Assembly (NCBI GenBank): GCA_964644965.1
Contig: CAZXYN010000001.1
Location: 139,012-203,011, forward strand
Origin: an uncultured Candidatus Saccharibacteria bacterium
GTDB lineage: Bacteria > Patescibacteriota > Saccharimonadia > Saccharimonadales > JACDBH01
Direction of reading: 5' to 3'
Length of the DNA: 64,000 nucleotides
The notes under the pieces were generated by a model. It saw only the letters and a list, made by a program, of their open reading frames with translations. It had not been told where the DNA came from and did not search any database. Position 1 is the first letter of the stretch; the number at the start of each line of letters is the position of its first letter. The translations under genes were made by a program, and so were the position numbers. Positions 23,911-51,748 of the stretch are shown here, one piece after another.

Positions 23911-23987
23911 GCCGACTTAGCTCAGTTGGTTAGAGCGTCAGTTTTGTAAACTGAATGTCCGGGGTTCGAATCCCCGAGTCGGCTCCA
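23911..23987 (+). tRNA. tRNA-Thr (anticodon TGT), CCA encoded
   Basis: Cloverleaf by hand: acceptor GCCGACT/AGTCGGC, anticodon loop TTTGTAA, T-loop TTCGAAT. Confidence 0.85.
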
Positions 23988-23988
23988 T

Positions 23989-24074
23989 GCAGGGTTAGTG
24001 AAGCGGTCAAACACGTCAGACTGTAAATCTGATGGCTTATGCCTTCGTAGGTTCGAATCCTACACCCTGCACCA
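23989..24074 (+). tRNA. tRNA-Tyr (anticodon GTA) with a long variable arm, CCA encoded
   Basis: Acceptor GCAGGGT/ACCCTGC, anticodon loop CTGTAAA, long variable arm, T-loop TTCGAAT. Confidence 0.85.
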
Positions 24075-26218: not shown

Positions 26219-26409
26219 GCCGCGATAGCTCAGTGGTAGAGCACCCCGCACCTTATTGAAGTATATTCTTATTGCCGAAGTAGCTCAGTGGTAGAGCATC
26301 GCCATGGTAAGGCGGGGGTCACGGGTTCAATCCCCGTCTTCGGCTCCAATTATTATCATTCTGTAAGGTGCGGGGGAAGGGGTCCTGGGTTCAAATCCCA
26401 GTCGTGGCT
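26219..26409 (+). tRNA. Split or interrupted tRNA-like gene whose 5' and 3' halves flank an embedded tRNA-Thr
   Basis: 5' half GCCGCGA-TAGCTCAGTGGTAGAGC-A-CCCCG... and 3' half ...CGGGG-GAAGGGGTC-CTGGG-TTCAAAT-CCCAG-TCGTGGC-T. The acceptor halves are complementary (GCCGCGA/TCGTGGC) and the T-stems pair. An 11-bp perfect helix CCCCGCACCTT/AAGGTGCGGGG brackets the inserted ~115 nt. Confidence 0.45.
26274..26348 (+). tRNA. tRNA-Thr (anticodon GGT), CCA encoded, nested inside the interrupted tRNA-like gene
   Basis: GCCGAAG-TA-GCTC-AGTGGTA-GAGC-A-TCGCC-ATGGTAA-GGCGG-GGGTC-ACGGG-TTCAATC-CCCGT-CTTCGGC-T-CCA. Confidence 0.85.
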
Positions 26410-31759: not shown

Positions 31760-33262
31760 CTACAAATCTTTTACCGATCCAAAGGCTACTCTATCAAGGA
31801 TTTCGCCGCTCATATCCATCATCGAAGCAGGGGTGACGACGAATTCTCCATAGCGATTGTTAACAGCATCAACAGCGTCGCTGATACGCCTCTCGGCCCC
31901 AAAAGTGCGTAAGTTTTCTGTAGGCTCAGTATTTGTTTCAAAAAAGTTAAGCTGTTCGGGGCGAGCTGGTTGCAAATCATAAACAGTGATACTCATACCT
32001 CTAACTTTGGCTATAATCTCAGCCTTCTCTAGCAGTACCATTGCCGCCTTATAAATACTCTCCGTCGAATACAAGCGATAGCCAACCTTCTGACCCTGAT
32101 GCCAGGCGCGCTGACTGGCTAGATTTTCGCCACCAATAAAGCCATTATCTTTCATTGGTATTTCTTGATAGTTTAGAAAGCTCAAGTACAAATGTATGCC
32201 GCCGGCCGTTAATTCGCCGCGCCGCACGCGCCGGCCAACTTTTTCGCACAGTTTCATCAGTAGCCGTGCAAGCTCATGTTTGTCATCTGTTTTACTGGGC
32301 AGGGCATACTGATGACCAATAGTGCGCTGTTTTGACTGATAATCATCTATTTCGTAACCCCGAAGGCGCAAATACCAGTAGTAGCCACCGATACTCTGGA
32401 AGACGACTTTTTCGAGCACGCGGCGCTCTGCTTGCAAAAAATCAAGTGGCGTCATGATGCCATACATCTGAAGACGACGCTTAAAACGGACATTGATGCC
32501 AGGCAAATCCATAAGATCCATACCCCCGCACACCCCGCACCGCCCAGATAAGTTTTTGGCAAAGCCAAAACCCTTGCTGGGCTCTTGGCTATTTTTGGCT
32601 TGTCCGCTCCGGTCCGCAGTCGCTGTATCTGTATACACCTCCTTTGCGGTTCTCGCTGACGCACCAAAACTAGCACAAGTGCTAGGTGTGCGGCACGCAT
32701 AGTACGCTTCTAAGTTAGTGTGATTTATTAGCGTCATGCCGTCTGGTTTATCGAATCCAGCGGCATATTTTGCCAGAAAGCGATTCGGGCCAATGCCGAT
32801 ATTAACCGTCACCGCCTCGCCGAGTCGTTCGGCTACTTTTTGCTTGATTTCCAACCCGATTTCGGTCATCGAAGCACCAGAACGTAAGATGGGTGAACCG
32901 GCAAGATTTAGTACAAACTCGTCGATGCTTTTGGGCGATACGTCACTGGTGTACTCCAACATCAACTCTTTGAACCTGCGATGCGCCTCACGGTATTTGG
33001 CCGGATCCGGGGTCATGATAACAATGCCTGGGCATAGACGACGAGCTTCGGCCACGTTGACACCAAGCTTCACGCCCATCCGCTTTGCGTCATAACTAGC
33101 CGCCAGCACGAAACCGTGAGGCGTATCATAAGCCGCAACGCCCACCGGTCGGTTGCGAAGCAATCTGTTGGCCTGTTGTTCGATGATCGAGAAGCATGAG
33201 TTCAAATCAATATGCATGATCCGCGCCGACGCCTTATTGAGAGGCAGCTCGACCGAACTCAT
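31760..33262 (-). CDS. Y-family DNA polymerase (UmuC/UvrX-like) carrying a ~65 aa in-frame insertion
   Basis: MHIDLNSCFSIIEQQANRLL...VGVAAYDTPHGFVLAASYDAKRMGVKLG palm; HhH region LPGINVRFKRRLQMYGI; 500 aa versus ~400 typical. Confidence 0.8.
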   Translation of the reverse strand: MSSVELPLNKASARIMHIDLNSCFSIIEQQANRLLRNRPVGVAAYDTPHGFVLAASYDAKRMGVKLGVNVAEARRLCPGIVIMTPDPAKYREAHRRFKELMLEYTSDVSPKSIDEFVLNLAGSPILRSGASMTEIGLEIKQKVAERLGEAVTVNIGIGPNRFLAKYAAGFDKPDGMTLINHTNLEAYYACRTPSTCASFGASARTAKEVYTDTATADRSGQAKNSQEPSKGFGFAKNLSGRCGVCGGMDLMDLPGINVRFKRRLQMYGIMTPLDFLQAERRVLEKVVFQSIGGYYWYLRLRGYEIDDYQSKQRTIGHQYALPSKTDDKHELARLLMKLCEKVGRRVRRGELTAGGIHLYLSFLNYQEIPMKDNGFIGGENLASQRAWHQGQKVGYRLYSTESIYKAAMVLLEKAEIIAKVRGMSITVYDLQPARPEQLNFFETNTEPTENLRTFGAERRISDAVDAVNNRYGEFVVTPASMMDMSGEILDRVAFGSVKDL

Positions 33263-33515: not shown

Positions 33516-33848
33516 TTACCGGGCACGATGACCATAGGTTACTGCTGCATCGTGAGCCGACATGTATTCCTCCAAAACCCAATTGAATGTGTCTGTATTG
33601 AACGCCAGCTTAAAGTACGCACCACCGTCCTTATCAGCAATCGAAAAATGATGAATTTGGTATTTTCCATCCCAAGTTTTGTGCCAGAAATCTATTTTGC
33701 CTAAGTAATAGTCCTGGTTGTTCCAGGTCAGCATGTAGGGCTGATGTGAGCGGGTACGGGCGTTGTAATACCACACCACACTGACGGGTTCGTTGAGTGA
33801 CTCACGCATGGTAACCTCCGTGGCAATTTGTCGTTTTCCATTTATCAT
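33516..33848 (-). CDS. Small protein, paralog A (possible YolD-like accessory factor)
   Basis: 110 aa; shares P..LTWN..DY.LG...FW......G....HH with paralog B. Confidence 0.5.
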   Translation of the reverse strand: MINGKRQIATEVTMRESLNEPVSVVWYYNARTRSHQPYMLTWNNQDYYLGKIDFWHKTWDGKYQIHHFSIADKDGGAYFKLAFNTDTFNWVLEEYMSAHDAAVTYGHRAR

Positions 33849-33944: not shown

Positions 33945-34286
33945 TCATACAGTTACTCCCACAAATGTTTGCATGGAGTTTGTTTGGTCGGTTGCAAAGG
34001 TAGCTTTTTCGAGCTGCCAGGTTAGATTCTCTGTCTCCAGGGACAATTCAAAGGTATAGTCGCCGCTTTCGTCACCGACACGGTAGTGATGCACCAGGAC
34101 ATCGCCACGATGTTCGGCATACCAGAATTGCACGCCGCCGAGTGTGTAATCTTCATCGTTCCAAGTCAGGCGGACTGGGCGAGCATATTGATCACGACCG
34201 TTAAAACTAAATAATACATCGACTGTTTTTTTATCGTTTTTGTTTAGGGCAGAAGAGAGGCTATTACGCATATCACAATACTCCAC
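33945..34286 (-). CDS. Small protein, paralog B (tandem duplicate of 33516-33848)
   Basis: 113 aa; RPVRLTWNDEDYTLGGVQFWYAEHRGDVLVHHY aligns with YMLTWNNQDYYLGKIDFWHKTWDGKYQIHHF of paralog A. Confidence 0.5.
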   Translation of the reverse strand: MEYCDMRNSLSSALNKNDKKTVDVLFSFNGRDQYARPVRLTWNDEDYTLGGVQFWYAEHRGDVLVHHYRVGDESGDYTFELSLETENLTWQLEKATFATDQTNSMQTFVGVTV

Positions 34287-34378: not shown

Positions 34379-35164
34379 ATGCGTAAAGCCCGAGCGGAGG
34401 AATTTCGAGGTCAATCAAAAAGCCCACACGTGACTAAGCATAAGTATACACCCGCCGCAGCAAGTCTCGTCAAGCATGTTTTTGCGGTACAATACAATCA
34501 GATGAAACTGAGGCTAGCGAGCAAAAAACAGGAACTGGGCGATGTGTGGTCTTTCTTTTTCGACCCAGAGCAACCCGTGACATGGCAAGCAGGGCAATCG
34601 ATTCGAATAGAACTCCCTCGCAAGACCTGGGGTATCAGCGAACGGCGATTTACCATTGCCTCAGCCCCTTGTGAAAAACATATTCAGATCACCACCAAAT
34701 TAAGTAGTAGCGAGTTCAAGCAAACCCTGGCCAAGCTTAAGCCCAACTCTATAATTGAAGGTCATAACATAGAAGGCGATTTTATCTGGGACAAGTCACG
34801 GCGTCCTAAGCTGTTCCTAGCAGGCGGTGTTGGTATTACACCGCTGCGGGCACTGCTCGCGCAGGCCATCCACGACAAAATTCCACTTAATATCACTCTG
34901 CTCTATAGCACTAAAGATAGCCCGCCTTTATTCAATCAGGAGTTGGAAATGTGGGCCAAGAAACACCGGGGTTTCCATTTGTACATAACCGACAAACGCA
35001 TCGCTATCGACCCGGGGTCAACATTGGTGCCCCTGTGGAAAGACAGTGTTATCTATATAGCGGGACCAGAGAAGATGGTACGACAATTATCGGATGAGCT
35101 TATCAGGGGTGGGCTATCAAAATCACAGCTCAAAACCGATGAATTCACTGGCAATGTTTTATAG
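34379..35164 (+). CDS. Ferredoxin-reductase-type FAD/NAD(P)-binding oxidoreductase
   Basis: RRFTIASAP (RxYS FAD motif) and LFLAGGVGITPL (NAD-binding GGxGxxP); the true start may be M at 34501. Confidence 0.5.
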   Translation: MRKARAEEFRGQSKSPHVTKHKYTPAAASLVKHVFAVQYNQMKLRLASKKQELGDVWSFFFDPEQPVTWQAGQSIRIELPRKTWGISERRFTIASAPCEKHIQITTKLSSSEFKQTLAKLKPNSIIEGHNIEGDFIWDKSRRPKLFLAGGVGITPLRALLAQAIHDKIPLNITLLYSTKDSPPLFNQELEMWAKKHRGFHLYITDKRIAIDPGSTLVPLWKDSVIYIAGPEKMVRQLSDELIRGGLSKSQLKTDEFTGNVL

Positions 35165-35264
35165 CTAAAACCTTAAGTAGTTATAAATTTTACATCATAC
35201 CAGTTTTGCCAGAATTAACAGGTTATTTCGTACTGACTTACTAGGAAATGCTTTTGCTTATGTG

Positions 35265-35292
35265 TTGACATATATTTCCAAACAAGTAATAT
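35265..35292 (+). promoter_or_regulatory. Sigma70-like promoter: TTGACA, 16 nt spacer, TAATAT
   Basis: TTGACATATATTTCCAAACAAGTAATAT. Confidence 0.5.
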
Positions 35293-35298
35293 GGAGTC

Positions 35299-35581
35299 TT
35301 GCGTCTTTCGTCCAAAGTGAGGTGGAGAAGTCGTAAGAACTTAATAATGTATCTTTCGCTGGAGTTCGAAATCAATAAATTCCGTGGCAGCGAATGATCT
35401 TATGTGACAAAGCGTACCTAATAGGTACACTGCGAAACAGAAGATTATCTCGATGACCGGTATTTTTGATTGCAGAGCCAGGGAACAGATTAAGTTATAA
35501 GTTCAATATTACTCATGCAAATATCACAAGTATAAGTAACTAATTTTCGCCTGCTTTACGTGAGGCAGGCGGTGCTTTTTG
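35299..35581 (+). ncRNA. Candidate ~280-nt structured leader or riboswitch ending in an intrinsic terminator, upstream of the LysM-Rpf gene
   Basis: No ORF of 60 aa or more on the + strand between the promoter and the terminator CGCCTGCTTTACGTGAGGCAGGCGGTGCTTTTT (35548-35581); several internal hairpins (TCGCTG..CAGCGA, GTACCTAATAGGTAC). Confidence 0.35.
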
Positions 35582-35643
35582 TGTGCCAAAAACAGAGGTA
35601 CATAAGGTACGTATTGCGATGAGACATAGGGAGTATAACTACA

Positions 35644-36384
35644 ATGAAAAAATCAGCTTTTATAGCCGGCCTTTTGGTGTCCGCGTTTATCGTGACACTA
35701 GCAGCACAAAGCAGTGTGCTAGCTATGGAGCTTACAAAGAGCTTCAGCTTGGGTGATATTTCTGTCACCAGTGAATATAAAGAGAACCAGCCAGAAGAAG
35801 TAGAAGAGGGTGAAGTCCTGGCAGCCGCAACAGAAGTAGCTTCAGAATCTGAGTCAGAAACAGCTGACGAGCCGGAACAAGTGGTCGTAACGGTCGCGAG
35901 TGGCGATTCTTTGAGCAAAATTGCTACGACGCACAATACGACATACAAGCGACTGTTTGACGCCAACCCGTCTATTGTTGATCCGAATGTCATCAACCCT
36001 GGTGATCAGATCCGTATACCAGCAGAGAACGAAGAACTAGCCAGCCGGGAACTACCCGTCTCTAAGCCCGCAGCTAAAAAACCGGCTGCCGAAGCTCCAA
36101 CCAGTCCAAAACCGGCAGTAGCGGCCGCTCGGATCGCAAATGACGGCTCTGTCTGGTCGCAACTGGCAATGTGCGAATCAGGTGGACGACCAAATGTGGT
36201 GTCGGCTAATGGCAAATACCACGGCCTTTACCAGTTCCTACCTAGCACTTGGCGTGCTGTTGGTGGTAGCGGATTACCATCCCAAGCCTCAGCCGAAGAA
36301 CAGACTATGCGCGCCCAGATGCTGCAAGCCCGTAGTGGCTGGGGTCAATGGCCAGCCTGTGCCCGCAAAATCGGCGTGCTTTAG
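35644..36384 (+). CDS. Secreted LysM-domain / Rpf-like (resuscitation-promoting-factor) transglycosylase
   Basis: Signal peptide; LysM SGDSLSKIATTHNTTYKRLFDANP...GDQIRIP; Rpf domain WSQLAMCESGGRPNVVSANGKYHGLYQFLPSTWRAVGG. Confidence 0.8.
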   Translation: MKKSAFIAGLLVSAFIVTLAAQSSVLAMELTKSFSLGDISVTSEYKENQPEEVEEGEVLAAATEVASESESETADEPEQVVVTVASGDSLSKIATTHNTTYKRLFDANPSIVDPNVINPGDQIRIPAENEELASRELPVSKPAAKKPAAEAPTSPKPAVAAARIANDGSVWSQLAMCESGGRPNVVSANGKYHGLYQFLPSTWRAVGGSGLPSQASAEEQTMRAQMLQARSGWGQWPACARKIGVL

Positions 36385-36399
36385 ACAAGCACTGATGAA

Positions 36400-36445
36400 A
36401 ATCCCAGAAACCCCTGGCTAACAGGGGTTTCTGTTTTTTGTAAGT
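36400..36445 (+). terminator. Rho-independent terminator
   Basis: CAGAAACCCCTGGCTAACAGGGGTTTCTGTTTTTTG. Confidence 0.75.
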
Positions 36446-36464
36446 ACATAGTAAGATAAGAACA

Positions 36465-36767
36465 ATGAACTTAGGCAGCAAAGCTTACTACTATCTTGCA
36501 AGTGTGACAGTATTTTTAATTGGTGGCGGCACGGTGTTCTATCATTACGTAGAAGACTTGTCATGGGTGGACGCATATTATTTCTGCATGATTACGCTCA
36601 CCACTGTAGGCTATGGTGATATAGCACCAAAAACTAATGCCGGAAAAATATTTACTACCTTTTACCTGATATTCGGCATAGGTATCATTACGACCTTCAT
36701 AACAACCATTGCAAAAAGACGTGGCAAAAAAATGGCCGAACGCCACCAGCGACGACAGCCAAAGTAG
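36465..36767 (+). CDS. Minimal two-TM potassium channel (KcsA/Kcv-like pore)
   Basis: 100 aa with selectivity filter TLTTVGYGDIAP between two TM helices. Confidence 0.75.
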   Translation: MNLGSKAYYYLASVTVFLIGGGTVFYHYVEDLSWVDAYYFCMITLTTVGYGDIAPKTNAGKIFTTFYLIFGIGIITTFITTIAKRRGKKMAERHQRRQPK

Positions 36768-36897: not shown

Positions 36898-36971
36898 CAG
36901 GGGTGGCGAGACTCGAACTCACGACACCTGGTTTTGGAGACCAGTGCTCTAGCCAACTGAGCTACACCCCT
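36898..36971 (-). tRNA. tRNA-Trp (anticodon CCA), CCA encoded
   Basis: Minus strand AGGGGTG-TA-GCTC-AGTTGGCTA-GAGC-A-CTGGT-CTCCAAA-ACCAG-GTGTC-GTGAG-TTCGAGT-CTCGC-CACCCCT-G-CCA; compound hairpin 36830-36895 downstream. Confidence 0.85.
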
Positions 36972-51476: not shown

Positions 51477-51505
51477 TTGACTTTTGTACGTTTTACCCCT
51501 ATAAT
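51477..51505 (+). promoter_or_regulatory. Consensus sigma70 promoter for rplJL
   Basis: TTGACT, 17 nt spacer, TATAAT. Confidence 0.55.
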
Positions 51506-51748
51506 AATCAGTGATTACCAAAGACAGTAGCTGTCAGTAAAATGACTTAATTTGCTACCGAGGCGATTTAGTAGATAGTAGCTAGTAGCTAGTATTTAGT
51601 AAACTCCTGTAAATGTCCCTGGTTAGTCCTGGGACTTTTTTAGTTCTAGTAATCAGCAGAATCTTTCGGTCGATAAGATTATGCAACTGTAAACCATAAC
51701 TTCGTACTTAGTACTCCATACTTTGTACCTTACTCCAAAGGAGTATCA
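51506..51748 (+). promoter_or_regulatory. rplJ (L10) leader with an attenuator-like hairpin
   Basis: ~240-nt untranslated leader; GTCCCTGGTTAGTCCTGGGACTTTTTT hairpin at 51615-51641; TAGTAGCTAG direct repeats. Confidence 0.45.

Follow-up and report, generated by a model that had tools for sequence, protein, structure and literature searches.

Introduction

What controls the production of a secreted cell-wall-cutting enzyme in an uncultured member of the Candidatus Saccharibacteria? The question is raised by a 480-nt intergenic region within a 64-kb stretch of contig CAZXYN010000001.1 (46% G+C; the whole stretch is hereafter called the window). In this region, a leader of ~282 nt, measured from the promoter to a terminator-like hairpin, precedes a gene encoding a predicted secreted protein with a LysM domain and an Rpf-like lytic transglycosylase domain (the LysM-Rpf gene; 35644-36384, 246 amino acids). 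All coordinates are window positions, and both the leader and the gene lie on the + strand. A preliminary description of this sequence had proposed a riboswitch-like architecture, in which a near-consensus promoter would fire into a structured RNA of ~280 nt devoid of open reading frames (ORFs), ending in a classic terminator 60 nt before the Shine-Dalgarno (SD) sequence.

Here, we report that the leader is conserved, that its helices are supported by covariation, and that it is linked exclusively to the LysM-Rpf gene. We consider it reasonably likely that the stretch acts as a cis-regulatory 5' leader of this muralytic gene, combining a leaky terminator with the presentation of the SD sequence. 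To our knowledge, the regulatory RNAs of the Patescibacteria (also called candidate phyla radiation bacteria) are almost unexplored. These bacteria live attached to host bacteria, often Actinobacteria, and the control of a secreted muralytic enzyme hence likely bears on the remodelling of their own wall or that of the host. A compact leader with testable helices offers an entry point to the signal controlling this enzyme, and might, as a native regulatory part, also be of use in the genetic tools now under construction for these bacteria.

Conservation of the leader and its link to the LysM-Rpf gene

Homologues of the LysM-Rpf protein are numerous (953 at E <= 1e-10), its close orthologs being found in metagenome assemblies only. 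The comparison set comprised the DNA around 12 orthologous proteins (47-70% identity), one locus recovered by a DNA-pattern scan and the window itself, giving 14 distinct leaders. In all 14 loci, and hence for orthologs with as little as ~50% protein identity, the element lies directly upstream of a LysM-Rpf ortholog and in the same orientation, within a conserved gene order (a DinB-like polymerase, two small proteins, an oxidoreductase and the LysM-Rpf gene). A metagenome scan with the pattern of the first hairpin returned two real loci and two chance matches inside a coding gene, and scans of viral contigs for the leader were empty. When one genome per species was scanned with the protein, mostly actinobacterial Rpf domains were retrieved, together with four Saccharibacteria loci (L052-L055); covariance models (CMs) R1 and R2, each with a single match per ortholog locus and a single match in the 64 kb, found no copy of the leader in any of these four LysM loci.

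What is kept among the leaders is a promoter, a 5'-terminal bulged hairpin (H1), a GC-rich hairpin (H2) whose loop forms a pseudoknot with the preceding linker, a third hairpin (H3) and a long-range (LR) helix formed just 5' of the SD sequence. Covariation was found for H1, H2, the pseudoknot and the LR helix, in a leader best described as a core of ~115 nt with an optional domain of 168 nt. This conserved core went unseen in the preliminary description; the region 35295-35590 does fold beyond expectation, as had been proposed (-91 kcal/mol versus -68.3 +/- 5.3 for dinucleotide shuffles, z = -4.28, 0 of 200 as good), yet its ~280 nt are not one conserved unit, ~168 nt of them belonging to a lineage-specific hairpin. 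A lack of conservation in related genomes, which would have told against the earlier proposal, was not observed. No conserved ORF is present: the leader holds only a 32-codon ORF starting with TTG (35299-35397, + strand) and a 44-codon ORF on the - strand, neither of which can be conserved because most orthologs lack the DNA in question.

The sigma-70-type promoter consists of a -35 box TTGACA (35265-35270), a 16-nt spacer and a -10 box TAATAT (35287-35292), and matches the consensus at 10 of 12 positions. Such a match is not significant in itself, since 2.6 promoter-like sites were expected and three were found in 1.8 kb; the -35/-10 pair nevertheless occupies the same position in all orthologous loci compared. 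Transcription would start at around 35298-35300, ~6-8 nt past the TAATAT box. The only other + strand site within the leader, in a scan of 34900-36700, is a weak 9/12 match inside the 168-nt insert, and from H2 to the start codon the same scan returned nothing resembling a promoter, so that the gene must be expressed by reading through H2.

The 5'-terminal hairpin H1

H1 (35297-35338) is built from an outer stem UCUUGCG/CGUAAGA, a CUUU/GAAG helix, a CG bulge, a UCCA/UGGA helix and the loop AAGUGAGG, with a minimum free energy (MFE) of -14.5 kcal/mol. It begins ~6-8 nt past the -10 box in all leaders, and its loop is nearly invariant, following the pattern (A)AA(U)G(U/C)GAGG with an invariant G-GAGG. 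When 12 sequences were aligned with MAFFT, pairing held in 87% of the cells, as compared with 41-65% when the partners are slid, and five pairs show double changes (for example, the fourth outer pair turns from C-G to U-A, and a C-G pair is replaced by G-C in L080); none of 500 shuffles matched the covariation score.

The hairpin is also highly specific. CM R2 scored 57.9 bits at this position and nothing else above 11.6 bits in the 64 kb with filters off, and all 13 ortholog leaders searched, including the divergent L068 and L078, yielded one significant copy each (30-63 bits). H1 is the most conserved element of the leader and is specific to the LysM-Rpf gene. Being compact, it would suit a small-molecule riboswitch or a protein-binding operator alike. 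In L068, whose H1 scores 35 bits, an unrelated, GC-richer structured segment of ~190 nt (L068:2787-2980) replaces the pseudoknot/H2 part, at the position taken by the 168-nt insert in the window.

The terminator-like hairpin H2 and its pseudoknot

H2 (35547-35572) has a stem CGCCUGC/GCAGGCG, extendable to 10-11 pairs, around a loop at 35555-35564 (MFE -16.9 kcal/mol). RNAalifold, applied to a MAFFT alignment of whole leaders whose spacing is variable, recovers H1 and H2 only; in a hand-fitted alignment, 94% of the H2 cells are paired and four of eight pairs carry double changes. Counted as a terminator-like unit (35547-35580), the hairpin forms an 11-pair stem with six GC pairs followed by TGCTTTTTGT, i.e. 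the combination of GC-rich hairpin and U-run that characterizes intrinsic terminators. The run itself (TTTTT, 35576-35580) begins 3 nt past the stem and ends ~48 nt ahead of the SD sequence. Since it starts at this distance from the stem, the terminator appears somewhat sub-optimal, and the classic terminator announced at 60 nt from the SD sequence is thus retained as a hairpin with a T-run, at a shorter distance and in a less than textbook form. By eye, 10 of 12 orthologs have a U-rich tract after H2, and the other two, L066 and L069, have CUCC(C)U in its place.

The 3' part of the H2 loop is complementary to a linker strand located ~20-25 nt upstream, and the two would form a pseudoknot with a 4-bp core, UCAC (35524-35527) with GUGA (35560-35563). 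This core is paired in 11 of 11 aligned sequences, as UCAC:GUGA in four (the window, L059, L060 and L063) and as UCUC:GAGA in seven, and the twelfth leader, L066, shows UCUC:GAGG with one U-G wobble. The pairing extends to 5-8 bp in 8 of 12 leaders. In duplex tests, linkers paired better with their own loops than with those of other leaders (permutation p = 0.009), and none of 2000 shuffled loops performed as well.

Two other pairings were considered and set aside. The GNGAGG of the H1 loop can pair with the linker, more weakly than the H2 loop does and with no covariation, L063 combining GCGAGG with UCAC; the pairing of AAAG/AAAUGC in the H1 loop with the start of the H2 loop is found in the window and L063 only. 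The linker, through its pairing with the loop, is the sole conserved partner of H2.

A long-range helix at the edge of the SD sequence

Between H2 and the SD sequence, the window folds into H3 (35572-35610), which in the MFE structure combines GUGCU/GGUAC with UUGUGUGCC/GGUACAUAA. H3 is a predicted helix, and one of unrelated sequence occupies this position in the MFE structures of the other leaders. Its 5' strand coincides with the U-run that follows H2 in ten leaders, and the terminator U-tract accordingly doubles as a strand of H3. As an alternative partner, the U-run could pair with an A-run at 35588-35592.

A related pattern was observed in the window (35576-35592) and at the equivalent positions of L059, L063, L071 and L075, where a T-run is followed by 5-7 nt (GUGUGCC-like) and by an A-run of similar length (UUUUUG-UGUGC-CAAAAA). 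Since the A-run matches the T-run after these 5-7 nt, the terminator U-tract can be sequestered in read-through transcripts.

H2 and H3 are enclosed by the LR helix, which in the full-length MFE structure of the window pairs 35512-35520 (CUCAU and GCAA) with 35614-35623 (UUGC-G-AUGAG, a purine box preceding the SD sequence). The 5' strand belongs to a conserved (Y-rich)AUGCAAA segment just after H1, in which AUGC/AAAU is invariant, and the 3' strand (GCAU/UUUGCA with a GGGAG-like box) lies just upstream of the SD sequence. The same helix appears in independent MFE structures of 10 of 12 leaders, with strands that vary by lineage: CUACUCU/GGGGUAG, UUACUCU/GGAGUAA, UUCAUGC/GCAUGAA, UAUUCAU/GUGAAUA and ACCCC/GGGGU. 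The four junction-side pairs (LRa, in the hand-fitted alignment A10) are paired in 98% of the cells (47/48) with three pair types each, and 0 of 500 shuffles matched their score; strands again paired better with their own partners than with those of other leaders (p = 0.007).

Just downstream of the helix lies the ribosome-binding region, composed of the SD sequence GGGAG (35629-35633), an A/U-rich spacer and the start codon ATG (35644-35646); here, AAGGGAGUA hardly varies among the orthologs. The CUCC(C)U that in L066 and L069 stands in place of the U-tract pairs with GGGGG; being complementary to the SD sequence, it could capture it. From their sequences, these two leaders appear to carry a different expression platform on the same sensor, a pattern typical of regulatory leaders.

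The conserved AUGCAAA segment might alternatively encode a leader peptide. In the window, a mini-ORF AUG CAA AUA UCA CAA GUA UAA (35515-35535, MQISQV*) overlaps the linker, and an AUG-initiated ORF of 5-7 codons, beginning M-(Q/R/C)-I-S, is seen by eye in 10 of 12 leaders, the two without AUG (L066 and L069) being those without the U-tract. The position of a translating ribosome would then control the pseudoknot and H2. Yet no SD-like sequence lies at a workable distance upstream of the AUG, and the stop codon drifts while the distance from AUG to H2 stays constant at ~32-35 nt; the conservation of AUGC is explained by LR pairing with GCAU, and that of the UCA/CUC codons by the pseudoknot. We hold such an attenuation mechanism to be highly improbable.

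The LR helix also bears on whether the RNA acts in cis at all. With its own promoter and a terminator-like 3' end, the leader could be an independent trans-acting small RNA of ~282 nt that merely happens to lie upstream of the LysM-Rpf gene, and trans action by terminated riboswitch leaders is known from other bacteria. The gene downstream is nonetheless the same, and co-oriented, in all 14 loci; the promoter scan returned no site between the terminator and the gene; and the conserved LR helix joins the leader to an SD-adjacent segment located downstream of the terminator, an arrangement that makes sense only in a read-through mRNA. The preliminary description had left the choice between a novel cis-regulatory RNA and a small RNA. 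The former part of this proposal is supported by a conserved, structured, non-coding leader that matches no Rfam family, and the latter appears very unlikely.

A lineage-specific insert after H1

The leader of the window carries, between H1 and the remainder, an accessory hairpin of 168 nt (35337-35504) with a basal helix GAACUU(A)/(U)AAGUUC, a tip GUACC...GGUAC and conserved internal loops. Its fold reaches -54.2 kcal/mol (z = -5.33) on the + strand and -47.6 kcal/mol on the - strand, a difference that counts in favour of the leader interpretation. The multiple stable hairpins seen earlier in this region correspond to this single long hairpin, which nhmmer found in the window and in one other lineage only (L060, L061, L062 and L072). 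Ten leaders lack it (L059, L063, L066, L067, L069, L071, L074, L075, L079 and L080), with a clean boundary placed exactly at the junction between H1 and the linker. The hairpin is, on these comparisons, a structured insert that does not belong to the core.

Between the window and L060, identity is 71% in the insert and ~80% in the core. Among 41 consensus pairs of the insert, six are changed on both sides, and strict conservation is seen in three segments, namely AUCUUUCGCUGGAGUUCGAAAU, the tip region GCGUACC..GGUAC..CUGCGAA and AUUGCAGAGCCAGGGAA. In design, the lower part of the insert (UCUUUCG-CUGG...CCAG-G-GAA) recalls H1, with UCUUUCG and a 4-bp stem on one side and a 4-bp stem and GAA on the other; this repetition suggests that the insert arose by duplication and expansion of H1. 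A kink-turn or T-box Stem-I reading of the insert was also considered and could not be established by eye.

Whether the insert has a role in regulation has to be weighed against its origin as a selfish or neutral insertion, either a palindrome resembling a miniature inverted-repeat transposable element or a runaway duplication of H1. Its patchy distribution would fit such an origin: the L060 lineage (63% protein identity) has the insert, whereas the closest relative L059 (70%) and L074 (65%) do not, and the presence/absence pattern is clean at a site where L068 carries a different, unrelated insertion of ~150 nt. A mobile element would, however, be expected in dispersed copies, and nhmmer found none elsewhere in ~540 kb of the loci compared, nor was any found in viral contigs. 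The insert is also single in the window by exact and 3-mismatch searches, a copy count for the source genome that rests on 64 kb. No target-site duplication was seen by eye. Furthermore, both lineages hold the insert at the same site, with strictly conserved internal loops, and its divergence with compensatory pairs indicates evolution under structural constraint rather than a recent arrival. A neutral insertion is thus, in our view, quite unlikely. With L068 included, domains seem to be gained preferentially at the junction that follows H1.

The full-length MFE structure of the window shows another pairing for the 3' base of the insert (35493-35504), whose partner there is the SD region (35631-35640) and not its own 5' base. 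This would make a lineage-specific SD-masking switch possible, as modelled on one sequence.

A gene is annotated across the element in one public record: in L062, a 114-codon gene on the - strand (L062:66-410) spans the insert and H1, with no counterpart in the window, where there is only the 44-codon ORF, or in the short-form loci. The annotation is thus probably spurious, made across the RNA element.

Proposed mechanism

From these features we infer a start site, termination at H2, switching and an effector, in the following order. Transcription would start ~6-8 nt past the TAATAT box, allowing H1 to form at the very 5' end, followed by the 168-nt accessory hairpin (in the window), the pyrimidine-rich/AUGCAAA segment, the UCAC linker, an A-rich spacer and H2. 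The GUGA of the H2 loop would pair back to the linker, forming the pseudoknot, and a fraction of the transcripts would end at the U-run, yielding RNAs of ~282 nt in the window, as compared with ~115 nt in relatives with the short form. In read-through transcripts, the U-run would become a strand of H3 and AUGCAAA would pair with the purine box upstream of the SD sequence, so that a three-way junction (LR/H2/H3) is closed by the LR helix, with the SD sequence remaining accessible at the 3' edge of this helix. An effector, either a small molecule or an RNA-binding protein, may be recognized by the loop and bulge of H1 and/or by the pseudoknotted junction, and would shift the balance between termination and read-through at H2, and possibly that between exposure of the SD sequence and its capture by the pyrimidine-rich segment.

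The invariant 5' hairpin, the pseudoknot with the terminator loop, the helix at the edge of the SD sequence and the SD-directed platform of two lineages are, taken together, hallmarks that we would expect of a cis-regulatory leader. Regulated termination at H2 is predicted with less assurance, at slightly below an even chance. No antiterminator competing with H2 was found by eye or in the MFE structures, and for this reason regulated termination is something that we can only infer.

Several points weigh against a regulatory leader, beginning with this lack of an antiterminator. The U-run lies 3 nt from the stem and serves as a strand of H3, so that H2 might be mainly architectural. In the window, the pseudoknot core is limited to 4 bp, and a single event (the UCAC clade versus the UCUC clade) accounts for all of its covariation, which is why we regard its support as moderate. 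The alignments of H2/pseudoknot and of the LR helix were hand-fitted (N-padded) to the proposed structure and lean towards it, and the 12-14 sequences of the sample are phylogenetically related, so that shuffle tests overstate significance. Finally, the divergent orthologs L068 and L078 keep H1 with no recognizable pseudoknot/H2/LR part.

An alternative is a constitutive structural 5' untranslated region that senses nothing, in which H1 stabilizes the 5' end against 5'-end-dependent decay, LR/H2/H3 present the SD sequence and H2 is a fixed, leaky dampener. The location of H1 at the extreme 5' end fits this role, the SD sequence is simply free in most full-length MFE structures, and no antiterminator was found. 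On the other hand, a pure stabilizer needs neither a nearly invariant loop of 8-9 nt nor a conserved CG bulge or a pseudoknot, and the platform switch in L066 and L069, where an anti-SD hairpin replaces the U-tract, suggests selection on a regulated step. We therefore judge a constitutive role unlikely and retain the cis-regulatory leader as the preferred interpretation.

The leader combines a multi-helix covarying fold with invariant unpaired nucleotides, which are generic features of riboswitches. A more novel but doubtful version is that the core, i.e. H1 and the pseudoknotted LR/H2/H3 junction, forms the aptamer of an undescribed riboswitch class sensing a small molecule, the insert adding a second H1-like sensor arm in some lineages. 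Possible signals include fragments of peptidoglycan, nucleotide messengers and metabolites of the host. If this were true, episymbiotic Saccharibacteria would adjust the production of a secreted, Rpf-like enzyme that cuts cell walls in response to such a small molecule.

The LysM-Rpf gene and its surroundings

The product of the LysM-Rpf gene agrees with its first description as a secreted LysM/Rpf-like protein: a hydrophobic, signal-like N-terminal segment is followed by matches to LysM (PF01476, 3.5e-12) and to the Rpf-like transglycosylase domain (PF06737, 1.5e-21). The Rpf-like domain alone matches Actinobacteria and a few Staphylococcaceae, and the N-terminal/LysM part matches mostly metagenome-assembled genomes of Saccharibacteria/Saccharimonadales (L052-L055), with the exception of a Nosocomiicoccus protein (L036, 34% full-length). 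In the window, this domain (36130-36381, residues ~165-246) is at most 81% identical to actinobacterial Rpf domains, such as those of Aeromicrobium and Cellulomonas, the rest of the protein matching Saccharibacteria. Two versions of the domain occur among the orthologs, GGRPNVVSANGKYHGLYQF in the window, P0004 and P0010, and GGNWQINTGNGYYGGLQF in P0006, which suggests domain exchange, possibly with actinobacterial hosts.

Downstream of the gene, a canonical intrinsic terminator (36405-36433, + strand) with a 12-pair stem and a directly adjacent TTTTTT shows, as far as its sequence can tell, that textbook terminators are in use in the source genome. A small K+ channel gene follows the LysM-Rpf gene, with a tRNA on the - strand (36898-36971) just downstream of it. 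In another locus, a reverse-transcriptase (RVT_1) gene (L063:5550-6485) lies 1.8 kb downstream of the LysM-Rpf ortholog; L063 has no insert and no link between the two is evident.

The upstream neighbour is a gene for an NAD-binding oxidoreductase (34379-35164), assigned by domain match. It is preceded by two paralogous small proteins of 110 and 113 amino acids, encoded on the - strand (33516-33848 and 33945-34286) with no Pfam match, and these in turn by a DinB/IMS-type polymerase gene (31760-33262), an order that recurs, with few exceptions, among the related loci. An inverted repeat, ATTTCGTA...TAGGAAAT then GCTTTTGC, is found at 35225-35257, abutting the -35 box; it is kept in orthologs with compensatory change (ATTTTGTA...TACAAAAT in L066, ATTTCGT...ACGAAAT in L059) and may act as an operator, as an UP-like element or, for the oxidoreductase gene, as a weak A/U-rich terminator.

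Comparison with known RNA families

At the gathering score, a search of the 64-kb window with Rfam 15 returned only four tRNAs (23911-24071, 26274-26345 and the one mentioned above among their positions) and an L10 leader (51500-51650, 64.8 bits), and 16 related loci gave no match except tRNAs. At E <= 10, nothing relevant was found in 35100-35720 or in three ortholog leaders, the hits being noise (an L20-leader terminator look-alike, a scaRNA, a miRNA and a thermometer).

The family that the gene context first brings to mind is the cyclic di-AMP (c-di-AMP) riboswitch of the ydaO class (RF00379), known upstream of actinobacterial rpf genes; like the present leader, it stands ahead of Rpf/LysM-type muralytic genes and often ends in an intrinsic terminator. 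LysM and cell-wall hydrolase genes are common targets of c-di-AMP riboswitches (PMC5737381), and this context alone speaks for a divergent member. Architecturally, a large aptamer with pseudo-two-fold symmetry stands against a 5' bulged hairpin and a pseudoknotted three-way junction, and no RF00379 match was obtained at either threshold in the window or the three ortholog leaders, in agreement with the lack of a ydaO consensus noted by eye in the preliminary description. With these searches, we consider ydaO membership effectively refuted, a divergent version being barely conceivable.

The actinobacterial framing of that description was itself misplaced, as the source genome belongs to Saccharibacteria, a phylum with a published lysM-associated motif, lysM-TM7. 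This motif is the closest published item. Weinberg et al. (2017, NAR 45:10811; PMC5737381) describe it as a structured RNA and cis-regulatory candidate, located in putative 5' untranslated regions of TM7/Saccharibacteria genes with a lysM domain; they suspected that it was connected with the c-di-AMP-type control of cell-wall genes, and report no c-di-AMP binding for the lysM motifs tested. Full-text literature searches returned no further paper mentioning lysM-TM7, and the papers checked on Saccharibacteria and riboswitches describe no native regulatory RNA. The present leader shares with lysM-TM7 its location in the 5' untranslated region of a lysM-domain gene of Saccharibacteria, a similarity of gene context. 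It differs in having no match in Rfam 15, where a remote relative could score below ~12 bits. We take Rfam 15 to include lysM-TM7, and its presence in the copy searched is likewise an assumption. The present leader may represent lysM-TM7 itself as it occurs in a diverged clade, a distant relative of it or an independent solution.

A chance resemblance was noted to the PyrR binding loop (RF00515), the H1 loop region UCCAGAGCGAGG (L075 and L080) or UCCAAAGUGAGG (window) recalling what we take to be the PyrR consensus, ARUCCAGAGAGGYU. A PyrR site was rejected: there is no RF00515 match at E <= 10, the loop is two nt longer, no antiterminator overlaps it and the gene is unrelated to pyrimidine metabolism.

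With terminator-type attenuators and riboswitch platforms in general, the leader shares the succession of promoter, structured sensor, GC hairpin with U-run and SD sequence, as well as a platform that varies by lineage (U-tract or anti-SD hairpin). It departs from them in that no antiterminator was identified, the terminator loop is engaged in a pseudoknot that is itself conserved and the downstream helix uses the U-run as one of its strands. The leader is probably a new family of a known general kind of leader RNA. If it proves to be lysM-TM7 or a relative, the pseudoknot, the LR helix to the SD sequence, the alternative platforms and the optional domain would be added features of that motif, new as far as we could check.

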